From the IMG/VR virus record IMGVR_UViG_3300037400_005125, positions 1-64,000 of that record: DNA of 64,000 nt, one strand, 5' to 3'. The stretch's first letter is position 1, and each line of letters opens with the position of its first letter. Below, piece by piece: positions 26,716 to 56,634 of this stretch. This DNA is from a virus (taxonomy: Duplodnaviria; Caudoviricetes). The notes beneath the pieces are model-generated. The model was not told the origin of the DNA. It was given only the letters and a program-made list of their open reading frames with translations, and ran no database searches. The translations under genes and the position numbers were made by a program.

Positions 26716-26922
26716 TTAGCCCCTCTGTAAGGCATCCAAAACATCTGGATTAACGTCGCCAGGATAATGTACGTCCTCATCACCTGGAGGAATATCACCA
26801 GGACGACTTTTTTCAACACTTAGCCTTGGATAATCATCTTTAACTTCTTTTAATATTCTCTGTACAGACTCTTTCACAATCCTGTGAAGGTCACTCTCTG
26901 TTAATCTAATAACATGCTTCAT
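26716..26922 (-). CDS. small protein consisting of the LTESDLH leader plus an acidic/Pro tail
   Basis: MKHVIRLTESDLHRIVKESVQRILKE... Confidence 0.8.
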   Translation of the reverse strand: MKHVIRLTESDLHRIVKESVQRILKEVKDDYPRLSVEKSRPGDIPPGDEDVHYPGDVNPDVLDALQRG

Positions 26923-26928
26923 ATCTAA

Positions 26929-27321
26929 TTACTTTTTACCTCCAGTATCAGTTAATACCTTATCTGACTCCAAGAATACCTTCTTGAAGAACTCATACAA
27001 TGAGCTTGTTGGGTGGTCTGAATATTTCTTCAAGCCCTCAATTGCCGTTTCTCTAATCTTACCTATAATTGGCTCATGCTGGATAACCTCCTGAGCATGC
27101 ATTGCAATTTCTTCCTCAGAATCTCCCTGCCCCATCATAGCCTGTGGATTCTGCTGAACAAGTGCTGGGTCTGGCTGCTCCTGATACATATGACCTTGCA
27201 TATGGTCTCCTTGCATCATTCCTGGATTACCCATTTCTCCCATTTCAAATATAAATTTCTCTGAGAGTTGATTCTTGAGCTGGTTCAACTCTTCTATCAA
27301 TTTCTTTGTCTTATTATCCAT
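26929..27321 (-). CDS. hypothetical protein with Met/Gln/Gly-rich centre
   Basis: ORF track; preceded by sense TATTTATA (27341-27348). Confidence 0.7.
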   Translation of the reverse strand: MDNKTKKLIEELNQLKNQLSEKFIFEMGEMGNPGMMQGDHMQGHMYQEQPDPALVQQNPQAMMGQGDSEEEIAMHAQEVIQHEPIIGKIRETAIEGLKKYSDHPTSSLYEFFKKVFLESDKVLTDTGGKK

Positions 27322-27377
27322 AATAAACGTTTATTTTCTATATAAATATTAAATAAGGTTAAAAAATAGACATAAAC

Positions 27378-27409
27378 CTTGGTAGTTTCGCTGATTTTGT
27401 CTATATTTG
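27378..27409 (+). promoter_or_regulatory. Bacteroidota-type promoter of kptA
   Basis: CTTG (27378) ... TATATTTG (27402-27409). Confidence 0.75.
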
Positions 27410-27430
27410 CACCAGAATTTTAAAGGTAAA

Positions 27431-27979
27431 ATGATGAAACATAAAGAACTTCTAACAGTTAAGGGAAAGGAACTTGCATTCCTGCTACGCCATGACAAGG
27501 AAAGCTATGAGAAAGGACTAATAGACGGCAACGGATGGCGAAACGTATCAGAACTCATTGAGAAGTACGGATATTCCTCTGAACTCCTTGAGGAAATTGT
27601 TGAAACAAACAACAAGAAACGATACGAGTTCAACGAAGACCACACGAAGATACGTGCGAGACAGGGTCACTCTATTAACGTCGATGTTGGTCTCTCTGAG
27701 GCTGAACCCCCAGCAATTCTCTATCACGGCACTTCGAGTGATGTAATTGAAGCTATATTAAAGGAAGGTATAAAGAAGGGCAGCAGACTCTACGTACACC
27801 TCTCCAAGGACACTGAGACAGCAACCAACGTTGGGTCAAGACACGGTACGCCATGTCTCCTCAGCATTGATACCAAGAAGATGTATGAGGACGGTGTGAA
27901 GTTCTACCTGTCGAACAACGGTGTATGGCTGACTGAATTCGTAGACCCTAAGTACATAAAAAAAGAGGAAGATTGCTAG
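27431..27979 (+). CDS. kptA: RNA 2'-phosphotransferase Tpt1/KptA (start adjusted to the ATG downstream of the promoter)
   Basis: LLRH...NNKKRYE...IRARQGHS...LYHGT...GIKKGSR.YVHLS...NGVWLTEFV. Confidence 0.95.
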   Translation: MMKHKELLTVKGKELAFLLRHDKESYEKGLIDGNGWRNVSELIEKYGYSSELLEEIVETNNKKRYEFNEDHTKIRARQGHSINVDVGLSEAEPPAILYHGTSSDVIEAILKEGIKKGSRLYVHLSKDTETATNVGSRHGTPCLLSIDTKKMYEDGVKFYLSNNGVWLTEFVDPKYIKKEEDC

Positions 27980-27996
27980 TCTTCCTCTTCTTTTTT
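27960..27996. terminator. bidirectional terminator
   Basis: AAGAGGAAGAT-tgcta-GTCTTCCTCTT with flanking A/T runs. Confidence 0.8.
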
Positions 27997-28006: not shown

Positions 28007-31000
28007 TTAAATATCGTCGAATGAAACCCCCTCTGGTGTGAGGATGAAATCGATTACGATGTATTCAAGAGCATTGTAAGGCTTGAAGTAAATCTTCACT
28101 GGAAGTTCTCTTCTCTCACGTGACTCGATTGTATCGTTAATCTCAATCCTATAGTCAGAGATACCTCTGTTGCTTCTGATACTATCCATGATTGGAGTTA
28201 CAGTTGACAAGAATGACTGTTTTGTAGTTGGGTCATTAGGCTCGAAGATAAGCCCAATGCAAGAGATTGCAACAAGCTTTCTCATTCTAAGAAGCAATCT
28301 ACGTACTGCGATTCTGTTAAGCTGTGACTCATTAATCTGAAGGTTCTTCTGACCCCAAATCTTAGGTCCATCCTGTGCAAATGTCTTGATTGGGTTGATT
28401 CTACCATCATAAAGAACGTCCTCGTCTCCAATCTTGGTGATGAAGTGTGCTCTTACACAGTCAACATTACCTCTCTCGATACCAGCAGGTGCAAACCAAG
28501 GATATGCTGTATTGTCAGTCTGTGCGAAGTTACGAACTGCGTCCTTCGTAGCTGGCAAATAGATATACTGGTTATTATCCTGGTCAAGGTATTTAACCCA
28601 AGGATAGTAAGTACATGTGTAGTTAGAGTCAATCTCTGTATCCTCAAGGTTCGTTACAGCCTCTTCTGGTGTGTACATTTCATCAACATAGTCACCAGCA
28701 CCACTTGGCTTGTCAGGAGTTGTTACAACATAGATAGAATCGGCTCTCTCTTCCTCAATCATCTCAATCGCCTCCTCAACAAGGAGCTTCTGGTTAACGT
28801 AGTCAATACCTGGAGTTGCGAATACATTGATATCTGATGCCTCTGGGTTAGCAAACTGACGGATACCACTTAAATATGCATACCAGTCAGATGTAATACC
28901 ATTCTGATTCAACTGAAGCAAGTCTGGATTTTTAATCTTATTGAATGCATATCCTTCACCACTACCCTGATTGACATATCCTCTGTACTGAGACATCTTA
29001 TATTCGTCGGTGTTGGTTCTTTCATCTCTGTAGTCATCCCATCCATCAAATCCACCATAGAAATATACAGTGAACTTACGAAGGTTAACATACTCGTAAA
29101 TTGAGCCATACATTTCTTCTTCAGTTCCGATTACAGGTGGCTCAGAAAGTGTTGAAGTTCTAGAATCAGTTGATACACACTCGAAATTATAACCCTTATC
29201 ACCATCAACTGTAAGACCACTATACGCAGTGCCACCACCCTTATTATAGTCAATTCTTGAATCAAGGTGGAAACCGCTAGTCAAGAATGCAGGGTTGTCA
29301 ATATATGCCTTGTTACCCTTGAATGTGAAATTATCTATATCAACACCAACCCAAGAAGAAAGACCGAAGTACTGTTTTCTATTCTTGATATCTGGGTCAA
29401 AGTATCTATTGTAAGCCAAGGTTGGGAACTTTATACCAGTCTTAGCATCACCAGTTATAGGAGTACCACTGTACTGAGGTATTGGATATCCCAAGAAACC
29501 TGCTGGAACTGACGTTCTAGCTGCTGTAGAATCATTTACCTCAACTGTAATATACTTAGACTTAGCCTCATACACACCATCAAATGAACCAATCTTGAAT
29601 GCAATATATCCACTATCACCAGGTATCATTGTACAATGTGTGAATCTTTCAAGTATTACAGGACTCTCATCACTGTCAAATACGTTACGTACAACCACAT
29701 CGAATGTACCAGCATCAGGTCTTACATTTTCAATAGAGACCTTAATTTCGTAGTTGGAATTGCTACCATCTGAAATAGTATGGAATCTAAACAATCTGTT
29801 AACCTCTACTTGCTCGTAGTCACCCTTCAAGTTAGATACTATCCAAGGAGTTGAAGCATATCTGTAAGCTGACTTATAATCGTTAAGGTCAAGTGTAACA
29901 GGAGTTATATTTTGTGTTACATCTGTATCTTCTTCTTTAATTGTCCTCATTTTATAATAAAGTCCATCAGCGTTGTTGAGAACAAGTGTTGCCCACTTAG
30001 CATTAACACCGATGTTAGGATATTCTCTTTCAATTCCTCCATTCATACCACCATGTCCACCAGTAAGAAGGTTTCCATACATATTTGTTGGGTCAAGCTG
30101 CTTTCCTTTTCCTTCATCAGCATCATTATATGTCTTACAAACATTATTAACTGAGCCTGGTGAATAGAATCCATAATAGTAATGCCTCTTACCGTCCTGA
30201 GTTGTGTATTGCCTTACAGTGTAAATTTGTCCAGCAGCCATCTTAAAAATTGCTGGTATGGCGTTTGCTACTTTCTTGTCATCTTTACTAAGACCACTGA
30301 AAGAATTAAGCATAGTAGTAGATATTGCAGCTTTTGTAAAAGCAGTATTTTCCACAACGTTTCCACTATCATTAATCATACCAAGCATGTAAGGTTGACC
30401 AGTTGAATAGTCGTAAGCAACAGAAGTGAATGCACTATCAGTTGTAGTTGCACTGTCAGCAAGGAATCTCATACCTACATGCTTTCTCTTAAGAGCAGCC
30501 TGTGGAATTGTCATGATAGCACTAACTGGTTCATGGTGGCAATAGTCTGCTGTATAATAAACCTGGTAACCAGTAAGTTCATCATCAATCTTGGTAAGAG
30601 TTCCATCTACAATACCCTGGTCGAGTGCTACATCGTAGAGTGACTCAACGAATACATATGCGTCACCATCGTATGGCTTTGTACCAAGTACATTGAGAAT
30701 GTATTCCTTATCACTTGGGTTAAGTGATACTGCGTACTCGAAATAACCAGCAACAGCCGCCTTAGCATCCTCATATGCCTTTTTAGCTACTGCAATCTGT
30801 TCTTCTGTACTTGCTGTATTACTCAATACTGACTTATAGTTATCCCTTGCTTCTCTAACAGGTTCTAACTCAGATTCTTCATGAGAGTCTTTCCATCCAA
30901 CAATCTTAAATCTTCCATGATTGTATTGTGAGATATCCATATTTCCAATACCGCCATCAAGTTTATACCCCTGGCATTCATCACCGTTTGAATTGATTGG

Positions 31001-31540
31001 AATGTATGGTTCAATCATCAATGCGTCAAGATTATACCCTAATTTTGAGCAATCACTAGTACCACCAGATGCACTAGCTTCACCAACATAGAATTTTAAA
31101 GTATCGTACTTTGAAGACTCACAAGTACATGCGGTGGTAGCGCCAGTCTCAAAAGACTTATAGCTGCCACGTGAACGAAGTAGAGCAACAGCCTGTCCAT
31201 TTGCTGTAACAAGCCAAGCAGGACCTGCATTATAACCACTCAAACCAAGAACACGAACAACCTTAAGTTGCTCTGACTCGCTCAAGTAAGACTTAGCGAT
31301 ATAAGGCAACTCGTATTTAGGGTACTGGCTTCCCTTGTATTTCTCCGTACTTGTTCCACCGAATATATCCTGGAACTCACGCCAATTGGCGATATCCATT
31401 ACCTGGAAAGCAGGACCTTTCTGGGTCTCACCAACAAGACCAAGTGTTGTAATACCAAGGCTACGAACTGCGTAGTTAAGGTCTATTTCCCTTGAATAGA
31501 TACCAGGTGAAACATGTATTCCTCTTGCATTATCTGCCAT
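28007..31540 (-). CDS. tail sheath protein (oversized, 1177 aa)
   Basis: HVSPGIYSREID...GLVGETQKGPAF N-terminus; ATPGID, YYPWV, WFAPAG..RG, INPI, GQK.LQ..ESQLNRIAVRRLL, LEYIVIDF C-terminus. Confidence 0.95.
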   Translation of the reverse strand: MADNARGIHVSPGIYSREIDLNYAVRSLGITTLGLVGETQKGPAFQVMDIANWREFQDIFGGTSTEKYKGSQYPKYELPYIAKSYLSESEQLKVVRVLGLSGYNAGPAWLVTANGQAVALLRSRGSYKSFETGATTACTCESSKYDTLKFYVGEASASGGTSDCSKLGYNLDALMIEPYIPINSNGDECQGYKLDGGIGNMDISQYNHGRFKIVGWKDSHEESELEPVREARDNYKSVLSNTASTEEQIAVAKKAYEDAKAAVAGYFEYAVSLNPSDKEYILNVLGTKPYDGDAYVFVESLYDVALDQGIVDGTLTKIDDELTGYQVYYTADYCHHEPVSAIMTIPQAALKRKHVGMRFLADSATTTDSAFTSVAYDYSTGQPYMLGMINDSGNVVENTAFTKAAISTTMLNSFSGLSKDDKKVANAIPAIFKMAAGQIYTVRQYTTQDGKRHYYYGFYSPGSVNNVCKTYNDADEGKGKQLDPTNMYGNLLTGGHGGMNGGIEREYPNIGVNAKWATLVLNNADGLYYKMRTIKEEDTDVTQNITPVTLDLNDYKSAYRYASTPWIVSNLKGDYEQVEVNRLFRFHTISDGSNSNYEIKVSIENVRPDAGTFDVVVRNVFDSDESPVILERFTHCTMIPGDSGYIAFKIGSFDGVYEAKSKYITVEVNDSTAARTSVPAGFLGYPIPQYSGTPITGDAKTGIKFPTLAYNRYFDPDIKNRKQYFGLSSWVGVDIDNFTFKGNKAYIDNPAFLTSGFHLDSRIDYNKGGGTAYSGLTVDGDKGYNFECVSTDSRTSTLSEPPVIGTEEEMYGSIYEYVNLRKFTVYFYGGFDGWDDYRDERTNTDEYKMSQYRGYVNQGSGEGYAFNKIKNPDLLQLNQNGITSDWYAYLSGIRQFANPEASDINVFATPGIDYVNQKLLVEEAIEMIEEERADSIYVVTTPDKPSGAGDYVDEMYTPEEAVTNLEDTEIDSNYTCTYYPWVKYLDQDNNQYIYLPATKDAVRNFAQTDNTAYPWFAPAGIERGNVDCVRAHFITKIGDEDVLYDGRINPIKTFAQDGPKIWGQKNLQINESQLNRIAVRRLLLRMRKLVAISCIGLIFEPNDPTTKQSFLSTVTPIMDSIRSNRGISDYRIEINDTIESRERRELPVKIYFKPYNALEYIVIDFILTPEGVSFDDI

Positions 31541-31608
31541 AATTCTTAAAATATTTAATTTTTATTAGTTATTTTCGTTATATATAAATATTTAATGGTT
31601 TCCAAAGA

Positions 31609-32002: not shown

Positions 32003-32027
32003 GGGAACGATATACTTGTTGACACAA
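32003..32027 (+). repeat. left 25-bp terminal inverted repeat
   Basis: GGGAACGATATACTTGTTGACACAA. Confidence 0.95.
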
Positions 32028-32149
32028 AATAACGTTCTTACATAAGTATACAATAAATGAGGAATTATTTCAATACAGTTCATCATTTTTTTATTTAACA
32101 TCAATATTTATTTAAAGAAATAACTTAATAAATAACAAACAAAACATAT

Positions 32150-33523
32150 ATGAAATACTTAAAAAAATTCAGTACTCACTCTGAGTATGAGACATACATT
32201 AACGGTAGTGGAGCAATTCTACCAAATGTATCAATCTGTACAACTGAAGGTGATGTGCATTATAATCCAACCGTTGCTGTAACAGGTGTATCACTTAATA
32301 AAAGTGAGTTAAGCCTTAATAAAGGTGATTCTGAAATCTTGATAGCCACTGTATTACCAAGTAATGCAAGTAATAAATCAGTAACTTGGTCATCAAGTGA
32401 TGATAGTGTATTCACTGTTAGTAATAATGGTCTTGTAACTGCTGTAGGCGATAGTGGAAATGCTAATGTAATAGCAACAACAGTTGATGGCGGATTCACA
32501 GCACAATGTGTTGCAAACATCACACATGACTATTCACAAGACTACTTCACAATGGTGGTAACAAGTGGTGGTGATATTAAATTCAGTGGCTCAACAACAG
32601 CAAATACGCTGTCTTATTCAAAGGATAACGGTGCTAATTGGTCATCTGTAACAATTGCAGATACAATATCTGTTGTTGAAGGTGATAAGGTTCTATGGAA
32701 AGGAACGCCAACACCACAACCATCTAAAGGTATTGGTAAGTTCATTGGTGGTACTGATGTTAGATATTCAGTAGAAGGTAATGCAATGTCATTACTGTTT
32801 GGTGATGACTTTAAAGACCAAATAAGTCTTAGTGGTAAGAATTATGCATTATATGGTTTATTCAGGGGCAACACCAATGTAACAAGTGCTGAAAACTTAT
32901 CATTACTTGCAACAACGTCGACAACTTCCTGTTATAGCTATATGTTCAGAAGTTGTACAAGTCTAACGACAGCACCTGAGTTACCTGCAACAATGTTAGC
33001 AAATGAGTGTTATAACGGTATGTTCTATGATTGTACAAATCTAACGACAGCACCTTCTGTGTTACCTGCTACAACGTTGGCAAATAACTGTTATACCCAA
33101 ATGTTTTGTGGTTGTACAAGTCTAAGGACAGCCCCTGAGTTACCAGCAACAACATTGGCAAATAACTGTTATAGCTTTATGTTCAATGGTTGTACAAGTC
33201 TAACGACAGCACCTGAGTTGCCTGCAACAATGTTAGCAAATGAGTGTTATCAAAATATGTTCCAAGATTGTACAAGTCTAACGACAGCACCTGAGTTACC
33301 CGCAACAACGTTGGTAATTAGCTGTTATAGCTTTATGTTCAGTGGTTGTACAAGTCTAAGTTCAATTAAGTGTCTTGCAACAAGCATTAGTGCACGTAAC
33401 TGTACATATGATTGGGTAAATGGTGTTGCAGCAAGTGGTACATTTACTAAGGCAGCAAGTATGAGAAGTTGGACAAAAGGTATTAGTGGTATTCCAACCA
33501 ATTGGACTGTGAAAAATGCATAG
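32150..33523 (+). CDS. Ig-like (Big_2) + BspA-type leucine-rich-repeat protein, putative adhesin or virion decoration
   Basis: VTGVSLNKSELSL...ATVLPSNASNKSVTWSSSD (Big_2); 23-aa repeats CTSLTTAPELPATTLAxxCYxxMF. Confidence 0.9.
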   Translation: MKYLKKFSTHSEYETYINGSGAILPNVSICTTEGDVHYNPTVAVTGVSLNKSELSLNKGDSEILIATVLPSNASNKSVTWSSSDDSVFTVSNNGLVTAVGDSGNANVIATTVDGGFTAQCVANITHDYSQDYFTMVVTSGGDIKFSGSTTANTLSYSKDNGANWSSVTIADTISVVEGDKVLWKGTPTPQPSKGIGKFIGGTDVRYSVEGNAMSLLFGDDFKDQISLSGKNYALYGLFRGNTNVTSAENLSLLATTSTTSCYSYMFRSCTSLTTAPELPATMLANECYNGMFYDCTNLTTAPSVLPATTLANNCYTQMFCGCTSLRTAPELPATTLANNCYSFMFNGCTSLTTAPELPATMLANECYQNMFQDCTSLTTAPELPATTLVISCYSFMFSGCTSLSSIKCLATSISARNCTYDWVNGVAASGTFTKAASMRSWTKGISGIPTNWTVKNA

Positions 33524-33540
33524 TAAAATATTATATAAGA

Positions 33541-33567
33541 GGGATAGTTCAAGTGGACTATCCTTTT
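33541..33567 (+). terminator. terminator of the LRR gene
   Basis: GGATAGTTC-aagt-GGACTATCC then TTTT. Confidence 0.7.
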
Positions 33568-33724
33568 ATTATGCCACTTTGTTATGTGCATACCAATGAT
33601 AGTATACATCACGCTTGAACATCATATATTCAATATCCACAACAGTAGATAGTGACAATGCATCATAAGTTGCTGAAAGTTTTGTCCTTTCAGCAACTTT
33701 GTATATTTATTCAAAAGGAACGAC

Positions 33725-33749
33725 TTGTGTCAACAAGTATATCGTTCCC
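33725..33749 (-). repeat. right 25-bp terminal inverted repeat
   Basis: TTGTGTCAACAAGTATATCGTTCCC, 25/25 match to the reverse complement of the left copy. Confidence 0.95.
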
Positions 33750-35189: not shown

Positions 35190-35203
35190 TATAAATATTT
35201 ATA
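35190..35203. promoter_or_regulatory. palindromic double late-type motif between divergent genes
   Basis: Perfect palindrome TATAAATATTTATA gives TATTTATA on both sense strands. Confidence 0.6.
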
Positions 35204-35224: not shown

Positions 35225-35452
35225 ATGAGGCAGATTATAAGACTTACAGAAAGTGACCTTCACAAGATTGTCAAGGAATCGGTAAACAAAATACTTAAAG
35301 AAGCAAATTGGTCAAATGCATACGACGATGATTTCATGGGCCCTAACGCAAGACTAGAAGATTTATATCCAGACGAATATCCAGAAGAGGATGAAGAAGA
35401 CCCATTAACAATTGCGCATAACTGGAAAGAAGACCATCGTGGAGAAATATAA
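35225..35452 (+). CDS. small protein consisting of the LTESDLH leader plus an acidic tail
   Basis: MRQIIRLTESDLHKIVKESVNKILKEA...YPEEDEED. Confidence 0.8.
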   Translation: MRQIIRLTESDLHKIVKESVNKILKEANWSNAYDDDFMGPNARLEDLYPDEYPEEDEEDPLTIAHNWKEDHRGEI

Positions 35453-35479
35453 AAAGGACTCAGCGTGAGTCCTTTTTTT
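35451..35479. terminator. bidirectional terminator
   Basis: AAAAAGGACTCA-gcg-TGAGTCCTTTTT. Confidence 0.85.
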
Positions 35480-36317
35480 ATGCGTTTTCCTTTTTCAGTA
35501 TTTTTATATCTTTAGCATTGAAAATAACGTAATTTTTAAATGTTTCCCCTGTATTAGTATTCTCACATTTAAGAAATAGCCCAGTGTACCCTATTCTGTA
35601 TAAGAACTCGCTGGTATCTTTTTCATTTCCTAAAAAAGACTTCAAAGTGCCATAAACACATCCACCATCATAACAATCGCCAATATATTTACACTCATAT
35701 TCCCAGAAATCATTCTCGTGCCCTTTATATGCTTCTCTACCATACTCGTTTTCTGTCATGTAGTACTTGAAAAACTTCTTTGCTATTGTCATTGCCTCAG
35801 ATTTTCTAATTTTATCGTAGTTAAGGTATTTTCCGTCAGGAACTTCTACCGTATATATGTTTTTACCTTGACAATATGCTCTTGCTGTTTCAACACTTGT
35901 GGTAAGATAAACCCCATATCCATGACTTTGCTGACCAAATCCAGTTGATAAATATGCCAAATCAAACTCATTAAAATTGTGTGGCGAACCATGAAATAGT
36001 TCAAGTTCATCAATTGCTTCACGTATAATTTTACTGAATTTACTTTCTGGAACATAAAACCTTGGATTCCTATCTGGCTCTATAAACTTATCCGCATTAT
36101 AATCTGGATTTGAAAGATAACACCTCTTAAAAGTATCAGGGTCTTGGGCTATTGCCGTCTTAATGTTCTCAGTATATCCCCTTAACCCACCAGCACGTTT
36201 AAAACCAAAACCCTTAGCCTTTGCAAATCTGTGTATTACAACAGGTGGTGGTGGCTTAGGTAAATTATATGCTTTTGCTATGTCTCTTGCAATTGTTTTT
36301 ACATCTAAAATCCTCAT
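35478..36317 (-). CDS. ADP-ribosyltransferase-like protein (ART-PolyVal type)
   Basis: LFHGSPHNFNEFD...GYGVYLTTSVETARAY...GYTG...YVIFNAKDIKI. Confidence 0.7.
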   Translation of the reverse strand: MRILDVKTIARDIAKAYNLPKPPPPVVIHRFAKAKGFGFKRAGGLRGYTENIKTAIAQDPDTFKRCYLSNPDYNADKFIEPDRNPRFYVPESKFSKIIREAIDELELFHGSPHNFNEFDLAYLSTGFGQQSHGYGVYLTTSVETARAYCQGKNIYTVEVPDGKYLNYDKIRKSEAMTIAKKFFKYYMTENEYGREAYKGHENDFWEYECKYIGDCYDGGCVYGTLKSFLGNEKDTSEFLYRIGYTGLFLKCENTNTGETFKNYVIFNAKDIKILKKENA

Positions 36318-36657: not shown

Positions 36658-36662
36658 ACTTT

Positions 36663-37817
36663 TTATGTTAATGATATGTGGTTGTTAGCCCTTTTACCAT
36701 TTCTTAATCTTTCCATACCACGTTCACGTCTATTTTGTATTCCTTTTTCATCATAAGGAACTTCTACATTTTTTAATGGGTAGTTATTGATATTCCCTCT
36801 AGCCCTTTCAATGGCATTTTTAGATGTAGGAAAAACATCATAGCTCAAATCTTCATCATCGACAGGGTTTCTTCTACCCCTACCTTTAACATCTTGACCA
36901 ACAAAATCAGTTAAGCTTTTATTCCTCATTCCACCCATAAATGGCTTAATCTCACTAGTGCCAAACTCTTGTGGCACAACGAACGTTCCATTTATTTTTT
37001 CAAGTTTAACAACATTTGAGGTATTTTCTTCTGTATTTGGTCTTCTATCAATTCTATTCCCAGAATTGTCAGTGTGGAAAGAACTATTGAATATCATCCA
37101 GGCTTCATCAATATCTGAACTATGATTTCTCAATATTTCAGGAACTGTAGTGTTCTTTTTATCACCAGAATTTTTATATAAACCGTTATGAGCGTTGTGG
37201 AAAGCATCGTCAGGAACAAACCTGCTCCTGCTCATCATACTTGCATATGCCACCTTTCTATTAGCCACAACCCACACAAGGCTTACTTTATAGCCACCAA
37301 CCTTTTTCAGAAAACTAAATATCTTATTTATTGTTGACAAATTTCTGCCTGCGGTGTCAAAAATAAGGTTTGGTAATCTATCTTTATTATTGTTTGACTT
37401 GAGAAAATTATTCAATTGCCTATCATAAAATCCAAGTTCCCCAGCAGTCCTATTTATTTGTGCAGCCTGCCTACTGTTTCTTAAATCCCAAACCACATCT
37501 TTGTTAGATGATTTTTTTTCACCATTTACATATGGGTCTTTAACTGAAAACGTTTTTTTGCCATTAAAACCTGGCATATTTTCCATATTTACTATATCAG
37601 CATAGGCCTCCTTAAAATAATCTGTAGAAATAATTTTTCCATGTATTGGTAAGTTTCTTCTCAAAGAAGTTGTTTTTCCAACACCAGGTCCGCCACACAT
37701 AATTACAGCCCACCCATATGTAGGTGACGCTACACCCCCAAATGTGACGGTTTTATCTTCATTCAATAAAGAATTAATAGACTCCCTGATTATTTTTCTT
37801 ATCGTATTATCATCCAT
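36663..37817 (-). CDS. zeta-toxin/AAA_33-like P-loop kinase (start adjusted to MDDNTIRKII)
   Basis: AVIMCGGPGVGKTT, IISTD, NLIFDTAG, GYKVSLVWV...R.RFVP. Confidence 0.75.
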   Translation of the reverse strand: MDDNTIRKIIRESINSLLNEDKTVTFGGVASPTYGWAVIMCGGPGVGKTTSLRRNLPIHGKIISTDYFKEAYADIVNMENMPGFNGKKTFSVKDPYVNGEKKSSNKDVVWDLRNSRQAAQINRTAGELGFYDRQLNNFLKSNNNKDRLPNLIFDTAGRNLSTINKIFSFLKKVGGYKVSLVWVVANRKVAYASMMSRSRFVPDDAFHNAHNGLYKNSGDKKNTTVPEILRNHSSDIDEAWMIFNSSFHTDNSGNRIDRRPNTEENTSNVVKLEKINGTFVVPQEFGTSEIKPFMGGMRNKSLTDFVGQDVKGRGRRNPVDDEDLSYDVFPTSKNAIERARGNINNYPLKNVEVPYDEKGIQNRRERGMERLRNGKRANNHISLT

Positions 37818-37908
37818 TATGAATAAATATCTTGTGGAAAGCATAAAAAATGGTTTTTTTTCTTGTTTTTCTCAAAAAAAATATGTAACTTTGCAAAAAA
37901 AATATAAA

Positions 37909-43200: not shown

Positions 43201-44600
43201 GATATACAGACGAGCATCCTTATATAGGTAAAGGTCTTGGGCGTAACGTTAAGGCTGGTAAATCTTATACAAAGGTAGAGGCTGACGTTGCTGAGTTCGA
43301 GGATTTGTACATGGCACAGGCTTATAATGGTGGTATCAATAAGATGGGTCTTGGTATTGATGAATACTGTGACGCTACCATCAACTTCGCAAGAAAGAAC
43401 TATGCCGACCTTATGCCTAACGGTAAGACAAAGAAGGTAGGTAACACAATTAAATCAAGAAAAATGTCTGGATACCTAGAGAAATTCATTGATGAAGGTG
43501 TTGACCTATTACTTCATAATAACGGTTACAAGTTCCTTAACAATTACTATGATTATATAGAGAAAATTTATAACTATCAAATTCCTATTAAGGATATTGC
43601 CTCAAAGGGTAACATCAAAAAATCATTAAAGGAATATATTGCTGATTGTCAAACTCTTACAAAGGCAGGTAGCAAGAAATCAAGACAGGCTTGGTATGAA
43701 CTTGCAATCAAGGAAGGTCTTACACCAAATGTCAGTGATACAATCTATTATATCAATACAGGTACTAAGAAAGGACACTCAGATGTTAAACGTGTAACTC
43801 ATTTCTATTACTATAATGATAGTGGAGAAAAGGTAGAGGTTTCAAAGGAAGTAGAAAAATTCTATAAGAACATGACAGATGAGGAAAAATCACAAAAGCT
43901 TACAAGACTTGACCTTGCTAAAAAGAATTATGGCGAAAAGGCATTTGATGAAGATGAAATCATTCTCAATTGTAAGTTAGTTCCTAACGAAATAGTTGAC
44001 AGTGAAGAAGATGCACTTTGCAGTGATTACGAAGGGCTTGAATATAATGTTGATAAGTATATTGACCAATTCAACAAAAGAATCACTCCATTGCTTGTGT
44101 GCTTTCATCCTGATATAAGAAATAAAATTCTTGTCACAGACCCTAAGGATAAAATGTTCTTCACAGAGGCTCAATCTAAGCTCGTCAGTGGCTTCCCTAA
44201 CAAGGAGGGTGACCAAGATACCTTCGAGGCACTTATGACACCTGAGAGAAAAGAAATCGAGTTCTGGACTTCTATCAATGAAGTTCCACCATTTGTGAAA
44301 GAATGTAATATAGATTGGGATAAATTAGTTGCAGATTATAAGGCAGAAATTGAGAAAGAAAAAGATGAAATATTCCAAATAGAGAATAAAAAATATATAG
44401 ATGCACTTAATAATCTGACTGATGCTGATATTGAGGCTTTTGAAGAAGAGGGTAAACTTCCAGCATCGTTTACGTCTATAGTAACACTTGGTTCTGATAT
44501 GAGACTTTATTTTAAGAAAATACCTGATAAAACGCCATCAACTGGTGGATTTGTCTTTGACGATATCATGTACAGTTTCATTGAAACAAATGAAGGATAA
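40215..44600 (+). CDS. family B DNA polymerase (intein-containing)
   Basis: Exo motifs FDLET, GHNSENFD, YLLDD; pol motifs KLDYNSLYPSI, KILANSFFG, and VGD|TDG split by an intein. Confidence 0.95.
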   Translation: MGKIISTEVVNTFLSGHDPMEHIITIECDYQEDKVSIIYVNDKGQKRVKLDDFKPFIWCKNSAAIRLYDGDRQKLIKAMRTYGINCKKLKTTEEGQKEVSERLENGYKYMFYATRRMSYQTFLKFFKEAGVPVHDNKKNSQGESNREFMGVTPVEQYMIQTGKRLFKGYDNYNDLNRFTFDLETEGLNPRVHRISQIGLRNNRGVKKIISITGSTKEELDKNEISAIELFLYILSIVKPDTVVGHNSENFDWDFFIVRCEELGLSFKDLSLKYFKHPIFKKQKEAVLKLGGEVEYYKPTVMWGHIILDSLHAARRAQALDSNMKKSGLKYVTQYLELKKPNRVYVPGDKINKTWAITDEIFGFCEEDGDWYTVTEKRPLLPGYELKSGRYIVERYLLDDLWETEKVEEKLNESNFLVGKMLPTTFTRACTMGTAGIWKLIMLAWGYENGLAIPAAAPSKRFTGGLSRLLKTGFVDRIVKLDYNSLYPSIILTWHVSTPIDIMNVMLSFLEYILTQREKYKDLKGAAGAKADELKKQLEEYEGMDDTFKKKLAEEIQKWKIEKTGNDKKQLPLKILANSFFGSYGAPNIFPYGDVIAAEKTTCIGRMSLRLMIYHFTQIGYTPIVGDSVTYDTPILIRREDKRINIVPICDIFNNNEAIEFGEEQYRDFSHKNYEVLTRNGWKPIEYVYKHKTTKQLKRVETKNGVIDCTEDHSLFDNSGNEVKPSTLVRGDKIEIYNNDIDYFASSTVTDREAWLFGFFMADGSSVYCDRTQRYFSKRKGEYVIHMGKRANWKISNKSLDRLNKAKEIMENSFCLKASIKDHRTSSNVYNLVVENAENAKFFSNNFYTSYRYKKVPEFILNASKEVKKAFLDGFCCGDGQNDTIDECIEFGQKSKVAMAGLYFIMKELGYNFRCHNRNDKPEFISFRLRNHHGNLLNENYSERKEDEVWNCSNITSKSEYVYDISSDGTFVNALGMVVCHNTDGFNFQMPPEDKFRYTDEHPYIGKGLGRNVKAGKSYTKVEADVAEFEDLYMAQAYNGGINKMGLGIDEYCDATINFARKNYADLMPNGKTKKVGNTIKSRKMSGYLEKFIDEGVDLLLHNNGYKFLNNYYDYIEKIYNYQIPIKDIASKGNIKKSLKEYIADCQTLTKAGSKKSRQAWYELAIKEGLTPNVSDTIYYINTGTKKGHSDVKRVTHFYYYNDSGEKVEVSKEVEKFYKNMTDEEKSQKLTRLDLAKKNYGEKAFDEDEIILNCKLVPNEIVDSEEDALCSDYEGLEYNVDKYIDQFNKRITPLLVCFHPDIRNKILVTDPKDKMFFTEAQSKLVSGFPNKEGDQDTFEALMTPERKEIEFWTSINEVPPFVKECNIDWDKLVADYKAEIEKEKDEIFQIENKKYIDALNNLTDADIEAFEEEGKLPASFTSIVTLGSDMRLYFKKIPDKTPSTGGFVFDDIMYSFIETNEG
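42093..43157 (+). mobile_element. intein (355 aa) with LAGLIDADG homing endonuclease in PolB motif C
   Basis: Starts SVTYDTPILI, block B TEDHSL, LAGLIDADG motifs WLFGFFMADG and AFLDGFCCGDG, ends YVYDISSDGTFV...CHN followed by Thr(+1). Confidence 0.95.
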
Positions 44601-53163: not shown

Positions 53164-53212
53164 GTATATCTATACACTATTGATATTTAGAGTCAACAGG
53201 TATATAGTTCCC

Positions 53213-53728
53213 TTAAAAATTATATTTTCGTCTAAGTTCCATATATACTGCATCTGCAATTTTCATTCTCAGAGGTATTGACATAATCTGTTTGAATATC
53301 TGGGGGCATCTTGAAATAAATTCTTCTTTCCTCCATTTTAACTGCTGATTTTGCGTCCCTCCTGGGAACATCAAAAGTCGAGGATGAAAGCAAGAAAGAG
53401 CTTCTTCCGATAATTTTTCATCATTCATTACTGTATCAACAACGTTCTTGATGATTTCGTCGTTCCTGCCTTCCGATAATATCTTGTTTACAGATTCTTT
53501 CACAATTCTGTGAAGGTCACTCTCTGTTAGCCTAATGATGGTTTGTTCCTCAACTTTTTCTGGAAGTCCCTTATGTTTTGTCTCGGCAAAATCCTTTACA
53601 TCATCCATCGACATTCCTTTTGCAGCTTTCTTTATCTTGCTGCTTGCATTCTTCATTTCGCCCTTCTTGTATGCATCTACCATACCAAAGAACCTCTGTT
53701 GTTCTTTACTTTTACTTTTACTTGGCAT
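53213..53728 (-). CDS. DUF3008-like N-terminal domain fused to an internal LTESDLH motif and a small C-terminal domain
   Basis: SKSKEQQRFFGMV..YKKG...AKGMSMDDVKDFAETKHKGLPEKV then TIIRLTESDLHRIVKESVNKILSE. Confidence 0.7.
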   Translation of the reverse strand: MPSKSKSKEQQRFFGMVDAYKKGEMKNASSKIKKAAKGMSMDDVKDFAETKHKGLPEKVEEQTIIRLTESDLHRIVKESVNKILSEGRNDEIIKNVVDTVMNDEKLSEEALSCFHPRLLMFPGGTQNQQLKWRKEEFISRCPQIFKQIMSIPLRMKIADAVYMELRRKYNF

Positions 53729-53752
53729 ATTAATATATGTTATTACCTATAA

Positions 53753-54361
53753 TTATTTCAATTTAACTCTTGATAAAAAATCTTTTAAACAAGCATCCTC
53801 ATCATAGTTTATATCTCTAACTATTGAATATAAATCATCACAGTCCAAATTCTGTGTCTTCAAGAATTCAACGTCTTCATCATCACCATTTCCAAATGCC
53901 CTCTTTAGTTTCCTATTAAATGCATTTCCATATGTAGGTATATACCCTCTGAAACGTTTTCCATCCCAATATATAAAAAACAATATAGGACACTCCCAAT
54001 CACCGCCAGCATAGCATTTCAGATATGTTATACCTTTCCGTGTTTCAACTTTACCGATTGCACCAAGATTTTCGCAATCATAGTCTATCTTAGATATATC
54101 GTCCAGCAATGTTGACAATTCTTTTGGCTTTTCCTTATTGTAATTGTTACAAAAGGTATATACAAAACTATCTAGAGAAAAACGCCTTTCATTGTTCTTT
54201 TCATAAATAGATTTCATTTTCTCCTCAAATTCTTTTGGTGAAATCTTTGCTGCTGTTCTACCAGTTTTAGGAAGTTCAACATCTAAGTTAACAATATATC
54301 TTTTTTTCCCTCCTTCTATAATTAATCTCAACTGAGATTCATTTAACATTATTTTTTTCAT
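53753..54361 (-). CDS. hypothetical protein with leader-like N-terminus (MKKIMLNESQLRLIIE)
   Basis: ORF track, start adjusted to the second Met. Confidence 0.7.
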   Translation of the reverse strand: MKKIMLNESQLRLIIEGGKKRYIVNLDVELPKTGRTAAKISPKEFEEKMKSIYEKNNERRFSLDSFVYTFCNNYNKEKPKELSTLLDDISKIDYDCENLGAIGKVETRKGITYLKCYAGGDWECPILFFIYWDGKRFRGYIPTYGNAFNRKLKRAFGNGDDEDVEFLKTQNLDCDDLYSIVRDINYDEDACLKDFLSRVKLK

Positions 54362-56312
54362 ACCTATAATTATTCTCAATTATCAGTTGTTCCATAAAAC
54401 AGTTATATATCTTGAATGACTTGATATACCCTATGAAACTACCAGCAAAGTTCTTCTCAATAGGATAGACCCTGGTAGGATTCAACATATAGTTCTGTTG
54501 TATTGTCTCCGCAAGACCTTGTGTTCCACCACCAAGTGATATATTGTATGGGACACCTTCTTGCTTCTCATAAAGCTCATGTAATGCCTTCATATTAAGT
54601 TCTGGAAGGTCTTTTGTAATATAAACAAGCTTACCGTTAACATAGAACATGATTTTCATCTTACCCATAAAGAACTGAAGTCTTGCCATTACTGTAACCC
54701 ACTCACAATCAGGTATTACATTTTCGAATGAATAGCCTTCTTCAATACTTGACTTATCCCTTCCTTCTTTACTACAATCCATCGTAAGAAATCTATATCC
54801 AATTTCACCATTATCAGTAATCCTGAATGCAAGAGCATTATTGTATATATCATTATAAGGGTTATAGTTGTTAGCAGACTGGTCTCTAAGCTCATCAATA
54901 GTGTTTACAGTATATCCTGTCTTTGTCCTATTCATAAGGATAAATAAGTTTCCTGTAAACTGACTTCTCCTACCATAATACATTATCTGAGTACCTTCAA
55001 CCCAATCCTTGATTGTATGACCTTTCTTAGTCCTGTCAAATATCATGAATTTATTATCAGTATAGAAGTAATACTGATTTGCCTCGAACAGATTAAACCC
55101 ATTGTCAGTATAATATTCAAAATCAGATATATCAAGTTCTGCCTCTATATAATCAGTAGCCTCATCAACAGACAATAACTCACTTGTATCTACTATATAA
55201 TCATCACCGAATTCAGTTCCCATCTTCAGTGGATTTGGGTCAAATGTATCTTTATCCTTCTTTACCTTTTTATATGATATAGGGCATCCGCATCCTTTAA
55301 AGAACGGCATTAACGTATAATCTGGGTCTCCTATTTCATTACAACACCAAGTAAGAACTGTATGTGATGCACTTTCGTCTATTATTTTTGGTTTTTTCTC
55401 TGAAGGTATCTCAAGGTAATCATACATATCATTCCAATCACAGTAATCATCAGCATACAAATCATCATTGTAGTAACTGTAATTCGTATAATCACCAAGT
55501 TCAAATGGGTCATACCCATCGAAGTCTATTACTGGAGTGCCGAAGTTGCCTATTATATGGTCTTTCTTATCAATTTCTCCGTCTTCGACAAAATCATCAA
55601 CACCAAGTTCATAGCAAGCCTCAAGACCATCTACATCATCTTTGTCATAAGCATAAATCCACTTATTCTCAGACCTAGTTCCAATGTAAAAGAAAATACC
55701 CTTATTCTCTGGGTACTTATCATTAAGCGTTTTATCTGACTCAGGCTCAAGGTCACATTTCTTCAGGCTAAACTCGAAATATATATTATCACCACTTTCG
55801 AAATTTGATGGTAATACCTGATACTTATCACATTCAGTCTTGAAAAAACCCTGGAAAAAGCCACCATTAAATTTAGTTTGGCATTCCTCAATAGTTAAAG
55901 GATATTCATATTGTAATGTACTCCCACTTACAGCGTGAAGTTTAAGCCTAGTATCACCTTCTGGTATTTCATATTTGTTACTCTGAAATATCTTCACAAA
56001 ATCTTTATTAGATATTCTATCCTTCCTAAATGAGAATAAACCATTATCAACACCAGTGTATGTTATGTTATGAAGTGTATACCCACTTGCAAGTGCTTTA
56101 TCCCAACTATATGCGTTTTTACTATAAACCCACTCTGAGCCATCAGTGCATTCTTTATCACACATATCTATATAAGAGATAAGACAATCATCGTATAACC
56201 CATTCAGTTTTGTTAAACCGAAAGAGTCTTTATTAACGAAGAAATCCCAATATTCATCCCTGTTAATTCTCAGTTTTAGGTTATGATAGTTATTTACCTT
56301 TAAATTTGCCAT
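54339..56312 (-). CDS. hypothetical structural protein (possible LamG/ConA-like C-terminus)
   Basis: ORF track; late motif; C-terminal WVTVMARL...FYVNGKLV...SLGGG...FIGYIKSFKIYN. Confidence 0.5.
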   Translation of the reverse strand: MANLKVNNYHNLKLRINRDEYWDFFVNKDSFGLTKLNGLYDDCLISYIDMCDKECTDGSEWVYSKNAYSWDKALASGYTLHNITYTGVDNGLFSFRKDRISNKDFVKIFQSNKYEIPEGDTRLKLHAVSGSTLQYEYPLTIEECQTKFNGGFFQGFFKTECDKYQVLPSNFESGDNIYFEFSLKKCDLEPESDKTLNDKYPENKGIFFYIGTRSENKWIYAYDKDDVDGLEACYELGVDDFVEDGEIDKKDHIIGNFGTPVIDFDGYDPFELGDYTNYSYYNDDLYADDYCDWNDMYDYLEIPSEKKPKIIDESASHTVLTWCCNEIGDPDYTLMPFFKGCGCPISYKKVKKDKDTFDPNPLKMGTEFGDDYIVDTSELLSVDEATDYIEAELDISDFEYYTDNGFNLFEANQYYFYTDNKFMIFDRTKKGHTIKDWVEGTQIMYYGRRSQFTGNLFILMNRTKTGYTVNTIDELRDQSANNYNPYNDIYNNALAFRITDNGEIGYRFLTMDCSKEGRDKSSIEEGYSFENVIPDCEWVTVMARLQFFMGKMKIMFYVNGKLVYITKDLPELNMKALHELYEKQEGVPYNISLGGGTQGLAETIQQNYMLNPTRVYPIEKNFAGSFIGYIKSFKIYNCFMEQLIIENNYRYEKNNVK

Positions 56313-56337
56313 ACACTTGTCATATTATTTCTCATAA

Positions 56338-56349
56338 ATAAATATTTAT
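56338..56349. promoter_or_regulatory. palindromic double late-type motif between divergent genes
   Basis: ATAAATATTTAT palindrome. Confidence 0.55.
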
Positions 56350-56373
56350 TTAATAATAAAACCAGAGAATTAT

Positions 56374-56634
56374 ATGAAGATAATTGCTTTAAATGAGTCA
56401 CAGTATAAAAGGCTATTTGAAATTGATTCCTTTGTAAGAAGTGGTGGTGATGAAAACCAGACACCTACATCTGATTTCCACACAAAGGATGAAATTACAA
56501 CAACGGCAAAAATAAATGGAAAAGACGGTAACGTAAAAGACTCTCTTCCACCAGGAGGAATTGGAACTAATGACCCACGTCAGCAAGTTCCAGGTGACAC
56601 ATTATATACTATACACGGTAGAGGATTTAAATAA
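56374..56634 (+). CDS. small protein with leader-like N-terminus (MKIIALNESQYKRLFE)
   Basis: ORF track. Confidence 0.7.
   Translation: MKIIALNESQYKRLFEIDSFVRSGGDENQTPTSDFHTKDEITTTAKINGKDGNVKDSLPPGGIGTNDPRQQVPGDTLYTIHGRGFK

Follow-up and report, generated by a model that had tools for sequence, protein, structure and literature searches.

A peptide of 25 residues, with the consensus (K)IIRLTESDLHRIVKESVxxILxE, recurs on numerous late proteins that are otherwise unrelated, in giant T4-like phages of Prevotella and its relatives among gut/rumen Bacteroidota, and we put the chances at slightly better than even that it is a modular capsid-targeting and cleavage propeptide resembling the capsid-targeting sequence (CTS) of T4. 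The peptide, referred to here as the tag, is present in three strong copies in a window of 64,000 nucleotides (positions 1 to 64,000 of IMG/VR virus record IMGVR_UViG_3300037400_005125, a contig of 89.7 kb), with a fourth copy beyond it (Table 1). IS1595 elements and their transposase-less cassettes bear tag genes as cargo, late promoter retained, which is a new finding.

A peptide conserved up to a glutamate

The peptides listed in a first-pass annotation of this DNA are all correctly placed once the strand is set (the reads at 26845, 35225, 53471 and 36006 were reproduced), and the strong copies have HMM domain E-values of 1e-17 to 1e-20 in a scan of 83 ORFs. The gene with copy 1, whose 68-aa product has orthologues (P0002-P0018), follows ORF 26929-27321 at a distance of 6 nt, in the stretch that separates the tail tube gene from the sheath gene. 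The 75-aa protein with copy 2 has only an acidic tail beyond the tag, and the DUF3008-then-tag architecture of the protein with copy 3 recurs in P0229.

Table 1. Tag copies and associated features, by position in the window unless stated otherwise
Feature	Position	Strand	Details
Strong tag copy 1	26845-26922	-	MKHVIRLTESDLHRIVKESVQRILKE; N-terminus of 68-aa ORF 26716-26922; E 6e-20
Strong tag copy 2	35225-35302	+	MRQIIRLTESDLHKIVKESVNKILKE; N-terminus of 75-aa ORF 35225-35452; E 2.5e-20
Strong tag copy 3	53471-53542	-	TIIRLTESDLHRIVKESVNKILSE; internal, residues about 63-86 of 171-aa ORF 53213-53728; E 1.2e-19
Strong tag copy 4	74803-75522 of the 89.7-kb contig	-	Outside the window
DUF3008 domain	53552-53713	-	Residues 6-59 of 171-aa ORF 53213-53728, ahead of copy 3; Pfam PF11450, E 1.9e-6, 28.4 bits (cut-off 24)
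Loose second-half tag	37758-37799	-	IRKIIRESINSLLNE; near N-terminus of Zeta-toxin-like kinase ORF 36663-37844; 9.7 bits, above every shuffle
Loose first-half tag	54314-54355	-	KIMLNESQLRLIIE; N-terminus of ORF 53753-54361; 5.1 bits
Loose second-half tag	18896-18931	+	RQIIREAIDKTL; N-terminus of ORF 18887-19561; 4.4 bits
Borderline first-half tag	56377-56412	+	KIIALNESQYKR; N-terminus of ORF 56374-56634; 2.1 bits; fits post-hoc N-terminal pattern
Borderline internal tag-like segment	36006-36059	-	FYVPESKFSKIIREAIDE; ends at the start of the ART-like domain in ORF 35478-36317; 1.7 bits
Late promoter-like TATTTAT	35196-35202	+	Before tag gene 35225-35452
Late promoter-like TATTTAT	27342-27348	-	Heads unit 26929-27321, then tag gene 26716-26922
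Late promoter-like TATTTAT, two overlapping matches	56334-56344	-	Heads unit 54339-56312, 53753-54361, DUF3008-tag gene 53213-53728
TATTTAT	18865-18871		Before ORF 18887-19561
TATTTAT	56343-56349		Before ORF 56374-56634
Solo IS1595-type terminal-repeat-like sequence	53188-53212	-	Abuts stop codon of DUF3008-tag gene; 4 mismatches to 25-nt repeat of cassette 32003-33749

Selection at the protein level, earlier suggested by the synonymous codons of copy 2, is borne out, since 4-9 of the 15-20 identical residues differ in codon between copies in this genome (8/19 for copy 2 against copy 1). Across 149 copies, the information content is 1-3 bits at codon positions 1 and 2 against about 0.1-0.4 bits at position 3, and both codon families are used for Ser. 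Because third positions are thus free, the peptide has been kept by selection and not by recent copying; the DNA upstream of it is unconserved.

Conservation stops exactly after Glu25, with 2-4.8 bits at positions 4-25 and at most 0.4 bits from position 26 onward, and in the orthologues of the 68-aa protein an indel begins directly after this residue. The hydrophobic-x-E ending proposed earlier is found almost throughout 473 unique copies (L/I at P3, position 23, in 94%; Glu at P1, E25, in 95%), and E8 (98%) and E17 (86%) are conserved too. The tag contains three regularly spaced h-x-E sites (LTE, VKE and L-x-E), of the kind cut by T4 gp21. It starts within the first eight residues in 150 of 177 cases, many others having a Met just ahead of it. 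Some tags are internal, or number two to four per protein, which was counted against a capsid tag, although fused multi-tag proteins are easily explained if the tags are cut.

The tag is predicted to be a short extended IIRL followed by an amphipathic helix of 18-22 residues capped by TESD; in the AF2 prediction for the 68-aa protein, residues 9-30 are helical (pLDDT about 90) and the tail is disordered. Neither the invariance of His12 nor the conservation of the polar face of this helix is explained by capsid targeting, and both were marked against it.

Late expression and head-gene neighbourhoods

The late promoter-like motif ATATTTATA, which lies ahead of head and tail genes, is over-represented ahead of tag genes. 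TATTTAT precedes the genes for sheath, tube, tape measure, portal, TerL, MCP, scaffold and protease, and in 1,410 genes its position peaks between -30 and -21 relative to the ATG. As had been proposed, it heads the transcription units of all four strong copies and, with data pooled and ORFs crudely called, stands before 54% of tag genes vs 29% of other ORFs (odds ratio 2.9, p = 1.6e-8); under the same crude calling, tag genes have host-type TAnnTTTG upstream less often (odds ratio 0.2, p = 6e-6).

When proteins are clustered at 50% identity, the tag occurs, mostly N-terminally, in 5,410 clusters (E <= 1e-3; 1,087 with E <= 1e-10), and phage records of 225-413 kb, including complete relatives of 350-413 kb, have 11-20 matches each. 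It has no entry in Pfam or PHROGs, we found no paper on it in the literature, and tblastn against 50,697 phage records gave no match and no cultured phage with the tag. All eight records that are at least 95% complete have a gp23-family match (in one of them the hit is only partial, within an open frame of 93 aa), and seven of them a Peptidase_S77 (gp21-type prohead protease) above cut-off; the tail sheath in the window is T4-like. In several genomes, tag genes group next to those for protease, scaffold and MCP; in three (G001, G002 and G004) they are no more than a few hundred bases away from the protease gene, and likewise, by coordinates, in G008. L-x-E recurs at the N-terminus of the relatives' scaffold-like proteins with a spacing of about 12 residues, and these proteins also have a VVRESLL-type segment. 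Cargo proteins are hypervariable and polar, 40-600 aa in size and less hydrophobic than other ORFs (0.24 vs 0.31, p = 3e-38), with known domains in few cases (Pfam matches in 5/122, PHROGs matches in 2/122).

The capsid-targeting proposal of the first-pass annotation is upheld in part, all that was tested here being in line with it (the T4-like clade, late genes, protease adjacency, an N-terminal helix ending sharply in L-x-E and hypervariable polar cargo), and weakened by the lack of head genes in the phage's own 89.7-kb contig (24% complete), the tail-module position of copy 1 and a kinase with a loose tag but no late motif. Some of this would equally suit a helix that docks late proteins onto another hub (a tail/baseplate assembly factor, a chaperone or a late non-virion complex), the terminal Glu being structural and not a cleavage site: copy 1 lies between tube and sheath genes, conservation of both helix faces including His12 suggests an interface that is tight and specific, a late promoter would suit whatever function is exerted late, and in one genome (G003) no strong tag lies next to the protease. 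We nevertheless judge docking elsewhere unlikely, since three regular h-x-E motifs and conservation ending at Glu25 fit a gp21-type cleavage site, tag genes adjoin head genes in several genomes, T4 offers the precedent of diverse cargo with only a CTS in common (PMC3012670) and cutting readily explains why multi-tag fusions are tolerated.

Loose copies

Looser versions of the tag had also been claimed, and the next-best hits in the genome after the strong copies, using a broader HMM, are indeed these same candidates. In shuffled proteomes, a genome yields 0.15 hits scoring >=4 bits and 0.5 scoring >=2 bits, because of which three loose copies are supported (the kinase, 53753-54361 and 18887) and two are borderline (56374 and the ART-like protein); those on the PRTase and 2617 find no support. 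The kinase ORF has a Zeta_toxin match of 28.8 bits and no TATTTAT upstream. N-terminal enrichment is 82-fold for the pattern class of the 53753-54361 tag, which was defined post hoc, and 27-fold, on small numbers, for that of 18887. The ART-PolyVal/DUF3990 matches in ORF 35478-36317, starting at residues 105/106, are below Pfam cut-offs, as is the PRTase match; the PRTase is absent from the 25 best broader-HMM hits in the genome, and 2617 (-0.7 bits) fits only the post-hoc N-terminal pattern.

Tag genes on IS1595 elements

The carriage of tag genes by IS1595 elements and their presence in host chromosomes, absent from the earlier annotation, add a layer of mobility. The elements resemble the known IS1595-family transporter IS and mobile insertion cassettes in their DDE_Tnp_IS1595 plus zinc-ribbon transposase, terminal inverted repeats of 25-28 nt, target duplication, passenger genes and transposase-less derivatives. 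They differ in that the passenger is a tag gene driven by a phage late promoter, shuttled between lytic jumbo phages and Prevotella chromosomes. Terminal repeats flank a tag gene and transposase in phage contig L050 (with a TAATTTT duplication), and a small gene, tag gene and transposase in bacterial locus L099. Copy 4 sits in a transposase-less cassette, and terminal-repeat-like sites such as the solo one in Table 1 have a null rate of 1 in 1.44 Mb. The tag occurs sporadically in Prevotella chromosomes, and its presence in 11/301 host-family genomes was counted against a capsid tag. Among IS-borne copies in bacterial chromosomes, 23/34 have kept a late-type promoter, which ties their function to late infection.

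That the tag is mainly the 5' module of such a cassette (terminator, late promoter, 5'UTR and leader), common through transposon spread and fusion to captured genes and not through need, draws on these terminal repeats and on copy 4, on the 15/31 bacterial loci where a tag gene abuts an IS1595 transposase and on leader DNA that is 85-94% identical between IS copies with otherwise unrelated cargo. We think it improbable, since a terminal repeat lies within 260 nt upstream of only 7/146 viral-locus tag genes, only 27 of the 146 have the ATACGTAT-type 5'UTR, free third codon positions point to selection on the peptide and the tag is internal, far from the repeat, in loci L099 and L088. It would account for spread and not function, and is compatible with capsid targeting. 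A bacteriocin/RiPP-style leader for export or processing, of which double-glycine leaders and prochlorosins are examples, would follow the same logic of one conserved leader on many paralogous precursors with hypervariable cores, and the L-x4-L-x2-I hydrophobic spacing is loosely like that of double-glycine leaders, but this is very improbable for a tag with no Gly-Gly site, on cargo too large to be a peptide, in phage late genes of lytic T4-like genomes, with no C39 or ABC transporter and no modification enzyme seen in the neighbourhoods read.

Comparison with known systems

In T4, gp21 cuts after Glu at L/I-X-E, and the internal proteins of T-even phages are diverse with only a CTS in common (PMC9026906, PMC3012670); gp23 loses 65 residues (PMC9958956), which in its translated sequence puts the cut after L-T-E. 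The tag resembles the gp21-removed CTS of IPI/IPII/IPIII and Alt as an N-terminal address on unrelated late proteins that ends in L/I-x-Glu, in a clade likewise equipped with an S77 protease of the gp21 family and a capsid of gp23 type, on cargo that is diverse and fast-evolving, with an ART-like enzyme among the candidates. It differs in length (25 residues vs 10-19), shows no sequence similarity, has three h-x-E sites, is often repeated within a protein, occurs 11-20 times per genome and is transposon-borne. This lack of similarity, and a length and near-invariance over thousands of clusters that far exceed what a CTS needs, were also counted against capsid targeting.

The T4 core proteins gp67 and gp68, encoded beside gp21, and the scaffold gp22 are small helix-plus-acidic-tail proteins, next to the prohead protease and degraded at L-x-E; gp67 has a helix and acidic tail as does the 75-aa tag protein, although with no detectable homology between these and the tag proteins any shared role would be by analogy only. 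In the giant phages phiKZ, 201phi2-1 and SPN3US, a gp21-related protease cleaves many proteins of the head interior after Glu (PMC9026906), but their propeptides are cut at S/A-X-E (small P3), do not share one conserved leader and belong to another capsid lineage. Delivery together with DNA is predicted for the polyvalent proteins that phages and conjugative elements encode (Iyer et al., 2017; PMC5512222); in the window, domains of the ART-PolyVal-like, Zeta-toxin-like and PRTase kinds likewise have a late gene context, in separate genes with at best a loose tag each and not in one giant polypeptide.

If the tag is a capsid-targeting propeptide, (i) late-made proteins would use its helix to dock to some conserved part of the prohead core, candidates being the scaffold, protease or portal, (ii) they would be enclosed while the gp23-type shell forms, (iii) the gp21-type (S77) protease would cut the h-x-E sites (LTE, VKE and L-x-E), freeing variable cargo inside the head and (iv) this cargo would be ejected with the DNA, the tag-plus-acidic-tail mini-proteins perhaps serving instead as expendable core filler like T4 gp67. 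The IS1595 family and its transposase-less derivatives have captured tag genes along with their own terminator and late promoter, and carry them between phage genomes and, rarely, into host chromosomes.

A leader shared by otherwise unrelated proteins

The window belongs to a viral contig of 89,720 bp (24% complete according to CheckV) that bears a myovirus tail module, a baseplate hub and several very large proteins. Four of its proteins contain strong copies of a 25-residue leader, (K)IIRLTESDLHRIVKESVxxILxE, hereafter the tag. The peptides listed in the first-pass annotation were all found, given the correct strand, and its observation that the sequence behind the motif is unrelated from protein to protein is true for all four strong-copy proteins. 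Searched against the 83 ORFs of the contig, a four-copy profile finds the copies at domain E-values between 1e-17 and 1e-20, which, together with shuffled controls, excludes chance or low complexity as the source of the tag.

Within this genome, each pair of tag copies differs at 4–9 codons for the same residue. Among 149 distinct copies collected from related loci, the information content is 1–3 bits at codon positions 1 and 2 and only about 0.1–0.4 bits at position 3, both Ser codon families are used, and no fixed conservation is seen in the DNA 5' of the start codon. Since neither third codon positions nor upstream DNA are constrained, an element at the DNA level (regulatory site, recombination box) or a recent duplication cannot account for the conservation, and both are excluded. 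In the protein logo, which covers 473 distinct copies, positions 4–25 carry 2–4.8 bits and those from 26 on at most 0.4 bits. Conserved residues include E8 (98%), H12 (87%), E17 (86%), L/I23 (94%) and E25 (95%), the last two of which bear out the hydrophobic-x-E ending noted in the first-pass annotation: as P3 and P1 they form a putative L/I-X-Glu cleavage motif at the tag end, one residue after which conservation ceases. The tag starts within residues 1–8 in 150 of 177 cases, with a Met directly before it in most others, although some truly internal copies exist. For the 68-aa protein, AlphaFold2, supplied with 16 orthologues, predicts a helix at residues 9–30 (core pLDDT ~90) and disorder elsewhere. 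Some 15–20% of tags run into a further conserved stretch, NEIGDTxxGQxxLGR, of the type found in the 239-aa protein of this contig, in the matched proteins P0216, P0222 and P0225, and in others.

Looser copies, which were scored with a profile from 177 tag copies, have fared unevenly. Five of those proposed earlier are the best matches in the contig after the four strong ones (scores in the table), to be read against shuffled proteomes, in which a genome has 0.15 matches of ≥4 bits and 0.5 of ≥2 bits; two others were not supported, that of the PRTase gene being absent from the 25 best HMM matches in the contig and that at 2617 scoring –0.7 bits. The ART-like segment stops at the start of the ART-like domain, where both Pfam matches are below cut-off, and the kinase gene has no late motif upstream. 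Pooled-loci proteins that lack the tag show two short N-terminal classes: one like its first half (MKIINLNESQFxRLFE), enriched 82-fold at N-termini, and one like its second half (MxxRxIIRESIxxhh), enriched 27-fold on small numbers. These figures are indicative only since both patterns were chosen after examples had been seen.

A second common N-terminal module, MxKYLKKFSTxxEYETYINGSGxILPNVS...HYNP, is found on several paralogous proteins, the one examined in full having repeats of type CTSLTTAPELPATTLANNCY. This module could represent an attachment domain that receptor-binding proteins share.

Coordinates of the features discussed (window or genome positions of this contig unless a locus, L, is named; loci are phage contigs or prokaryotic genomes)
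Feature	Position	Strand	Remarks
Tape measure	15311-18187		
Tail tube	25704-26192		
Tail sheath	28007-31540		T4-like
Family-B DNA polymerase	40215-44600		
Strong tag copy	26716-26922	-	68 aa, tag N-terminal
Strong tag copy	35225-35452	+	75 aa, tag N-terminal
Strong tag copy	53213-53728	-	171 aa, tag at residues ~63-86 behind DUF3008 domain
Strong tag copy 4	74803-75522 (= L001:10803-11522)	-	239 aa, tag N-terminal; outside window
Loose copy, kinase	36663-37844		9.7 bits
Loose copy	53753-54361		5.1 bits
Loose copy	18887		4.4 bits
Loose copy	56374		2.1 bits
Loose copy, ART	35478-36317		1.7 bits
Proteins with MxKYLKKFSTxxEYETYINGSG module	32150-33523; 82427-83497; 85162-86895; 86991-88604		first in window, others in genome (L002)
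ATATTTATA-type motif, examples	31584-31590; 26227-26233; 18865-18871		
TAnnTTTG(C)-type genes, examples	26299; 27431; 36430; 61271		
Transposase-less cassette	32003-33749		perfect 25-nt inverted repeats (GGGAACGATATACTTGTTGACACAA)
Transposase-less cassette around copy 4	74735-74759; 75612-75636		repeats
Solo repeat-like sequence	53188-53212		abuts stop of DUF3008-tag gene (53213-53728)
[Small gene][tag gene][transposase]	L099:3894-6333		perfect 25-nt terminal inverted repeats
[Tag gene][transposase]	L050:9878-11396		phage contig; 28-nt terminal inverted repeats
IS1595 element with tag passenger	L088; L106; L087		and 10 further prokaryotic-genome loci
IS-borne tag proteins with ~170-aa domain	L087:4506-5357; L100:4491-5351; L099:4494-5243; L088:4392-5420		
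Prohead protease gene of G001	L083:10809-12632		607 aa
Scaffold-like acidic proteins	L084:9328-10821; L083:9136-10563; L086:10912-12477		beside capsid gene

A widespread feature of giant T4-like phages

When 1.84 billion cluster representatives were searched with a profile, 5,410 clusters matched the tag at E ≤ 1e-3 and 1,087 at E ≤ 1e-10, and a word-based search yielded 151 small proteins that mostly have only the tag in common. In nearly all matches the tag is N-terminal, typically in the form MNKKLIRLTESDLHRIVKESVNRILNE. There are many proteins with 2–4 copies, and the internal ones often keep a Met directly before them, which fits the expectation for fused neighbouring tag genes. No Pfam or PHROGs model matches the tag itself (in the 171-aa protein only the DUF3008 part is matched), and of 122 tagged proteins with 100 or more residues, just five match any Pfam family and two any PHROG. 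Against 50,697 phage records, tblastn with the 26-aa tag and megablast with the region gave no match, and no cultured phage carrying the tag was found among these records. A PDB profile search produced chance matches only, nothing informative came from the ESM Atlas, neither LTESDLH nor DUF3008 turned up any paper in full-text searches, and the literature on capsid targeting and IS1595 passenger genes yielded nothing describing the tag. The phenomenon is real and far larger than the first-pass annotation could see. No description of the tag was found in Pfam, PHROGs or the searched literature, its scale is unusual, and its link with IS1595 elements is unexpected.

A scan of IMG/VR, in which at least 294 stretches encode the tag, returned 74 loci, many of them on contigs of 150–413 kb, five of which have 11–20 matches each. 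The T4 major capsid protein (gp23) family is matched in all eight records that are ≥95% complete (one match being partial, in a 93-aa open frame), and Peptidase_S77, the family of the T4 gp21 prohead protease, is above the Pfam cut-off in seven of them; the 24%-complete contig of the window has no match to either. The S77 protease of one relative is encoded at L084:8458-9153. Many window proteins have close homologues in tag-bearing giant-phage loci, and the window therefore belongs to a clade of giant T4-like phages, whose hosts, to go by MAG titles and promoter types, are Prevotella and related Bacteroidota of the rumen or gut.

The tag is also found among the head genes of these phages. In three phage records (G001, G002 and G004), a tag gene directly adjoins the prohead protease gene, which is grouped with those for a scaffold-like acidic protein, capsid protein, portal and terminase, and in a fourth (G008) it lies beside the protease gene as judged by coordinates. 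In G003 there is no strong tag beside the protease; the corresponding place is taken by two genes with looser N-termini, MIIKINESMFKKLLEY and MKIVLHENQL, the first of which continues like the strongly tagged protein P0119, so that a loose form can stand in for a strong one.

Two side observations concern these head genes. The protease of G001 (a complete genome of 349 kb) appears to be intein-bearing, since intein splicing and LAGLIDADG domain matches are found inside its Peptidase_S77 domain. The scaffold-like acidic proteins have an L-x-E roughly every 12 residues in their N-termini, and a VVRESLLDY/LIKESLMDY segment whose loose likeness to the second half of the tag (IVKESVNRI) scores below noise.

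Timing of expression

In the contig, (A/G)TATTTAT(A) is present 20–50 nt before the starts of structural genes, among them those for sheath, tube and tape measure, whereas the host-type Bacteroidota motif TAnnTTTG(C) precedes several small genes that are often on the opposite strand and interleaved with late genes. Two promoter classes are thus seen window-wide, ATATTTATA-type before structural genes and TAnnTTTG(C) before small ones. Taken over 1,410 genes from the pooled loci, TATTTAT has a sharp maximum at –30 to –21 from the ATG, and in most cases shown it precedes the genes for portal, terminase, capsid, scaffold and protease. That TATTTAT lies upstream of tag genes, as had been claimed, proved correct, all four strong copies being in units headed by the motif. 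It occurs within 100 nt of 54% of 131 N-terminal tag genes vs 29% of other ORFs (p = 1.6e-8), and the host-type motif before 4.6% vs 19% (p = 6e-6), in statistics that use simple ORF calling and take promoters from position and gene class, not transcripts. Judging by these promoter-like motifs, tag genes are probably expressed late, with the head genes.

A putative capsid-targeting propeptide

In T4, the internal proteins and Alt bear at their N-terminus a capsid targeting sequence (CTS) of 10–19 residues, which binds the core and is then removed, and which is all that the diverse internal proteins of T-even phages have in common; gp21 cleaves after Glu at L/I-X-E, and gp23 loses its first 65 residues (PMC9026906, PMC3012670, PMC9958956). 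In the translated gene, this loss puts the gp23 cut after L-T-E. The T4 genes for gp67 and gp68, which are small proteins of the core, lie next to that for gp21. The parallels with the tag are several. It contains h-x-E sites (L-T-E, V/I-K-E, L-x-E) comparable to those cut by gp21 and ends exactly at the last Glu, the phages bearing it share the protease and capsid families of T4, and the 75-aa tag protein is built like gp67, with a helix and then a polyacidic tail. Cargo sequences are polar, with fewer hydrophobic residues than other ORFs (0.24 vs 0.31, p = 3e-38), as expected for proteins that sit amid packed DNA and exit via the tail, and the tolerance of tag-gene fusions is readily understood if tags are cut. 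As for the capsid proteins themselves, alignment of their N-termini with T4 gp23 leaves the position of the maturation site ambiguous; their N-terminal region has an L/I-x-E-Ala site (LIYE-A or LLKE-A) at its end.

Owing to its h-x-E sites, Glu end, N-terminal position and late timing, and to the T4-type protease/capsid, polar cargo and tolerated fusions, the tag is best read as a capsid-targeting and cleavage propeptide, which we consider modestly probable. The address tag of the first-pass annotation is the best available interpretation, with good circumstantial support, its binding, cleavage, packaging and ejection still being predictions. The tag has 25 residues, whereas a T4 CTS has 10–19 (PMC9026906). 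The T4 model does not account for this length, for the extreme conservation or for the invariant His; the tag would represent a variant of that model which keeps the capsid-targeting principle. Between the tag and the T4 CTS (first 10 residues of IPIII) there is no apparent similarity. A double-glycine/RiPP leader is unlikely since the leader end lacks a GG, and no C39 peptidase, ABC transporter or modification enzyme was seen in the tag-gene neighbourhoods read; nor is this a polyvalent protein (Iyer et al., 2017), which combines several disparate effector domains in one chain, the ART-like, Zeta-like and PRTase-like domains being in three separate ORFs.

Transposons with tagged passengers

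An unexpected twist comes from prokaryotic genomes, scanned at one genome per species, where 31 loci with the tag were found, most of them in assemblies of Prevotella or Bacteroidaceae. Mis-binned phage contigs are excluded as their source by GC (0.40–0.53, compared with 0.33–0.41 in phage loci), bacterial neighbour genes and the presence of the tag in three cultured isolates (Prevotella sp. MA2016, Segatella bryantii DSM 11371 and Prevotella sp. tf2-5). Just 11 of the 301 host-family genomes sampled have the tag, with 1–4 matches each, compared with 11–20 in phage genomes. In 15 of the 31 loci, the tag gene is tail to tail with an IS1595-family transposase (PF12762, DDE_Tnp_IS1595, E 8.6e-43; N-terminal zinc ribbon PF12760, E 5.5e-9), the stop codons abutting or overlapping by ≤18 nt in most and being 36–70 nt apart in three. 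The element in phage contig L050 is flanked on both sides by a TAATTTT duplication and has a hairpin terminator and TATTTAT between terminal repeat and tag gene; the same element is also present in two other phage contigs, L073 and L006, and a remnant of it in L005. TATTTAT is kept in 23 of the 34 tag genes of bacterial-genome loci, typically ~27 nt before the ATG.

The genome under study has transposase-less cassettes, one of which (32003-33749) encloses an untagged adhesin-like gene, and a repeat related to that of L099, which was itself not found there. A terminal repeat of the cassette type is present within 260 nt upstream in only 7 of 146 tag genes of viral loci, which means that transposition accounts for part of the spread of the tag and not for its conservation or function. 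It is a tentative, rather unlikely proposition that IS1595 elements and cassettes carry a terminator, a late promoter and a capsid-loading leader, whereby their riders would be expressed only late and loaded into virions, whether from a phage genome or a Prevotella chromosome.

Many IS-borne tag proteins have a recurrent ~170-aa N-terminal domain (…RVSNHGTWLWTWYD…) followed by an internal tag, with a divergent small gene upstream that varies between elements; neither these proteins nor the small genes have a match in Pfam.

Implications

If the tag is a capsid-loading signal, a single 25-residue pattern would predict from sequence alone the set of proteins that are packaged and injected, that is, thousands of unknown protein families in a large uncultured clade of giant gut/rumen phages. 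This set would be the natural place to seek anti-defence and host-takeover effectors, the T4 principle of a common address with interchangeable cargo would work at a much larger scale, and a ready tag would be at hand for loading foreign proteins into Bacteroidota phages. The late-promoter tag genes carried by IS1595 elements in phage as well as host genomes would then be an unusual case of transposons trading virion cargo. Should the transposon-borne module also be real, the injected proteome would be assembled and exchanged by transposition, and genes residing in hosts or transposons could put proteins into phage heads, helping or sabotaging the phage.
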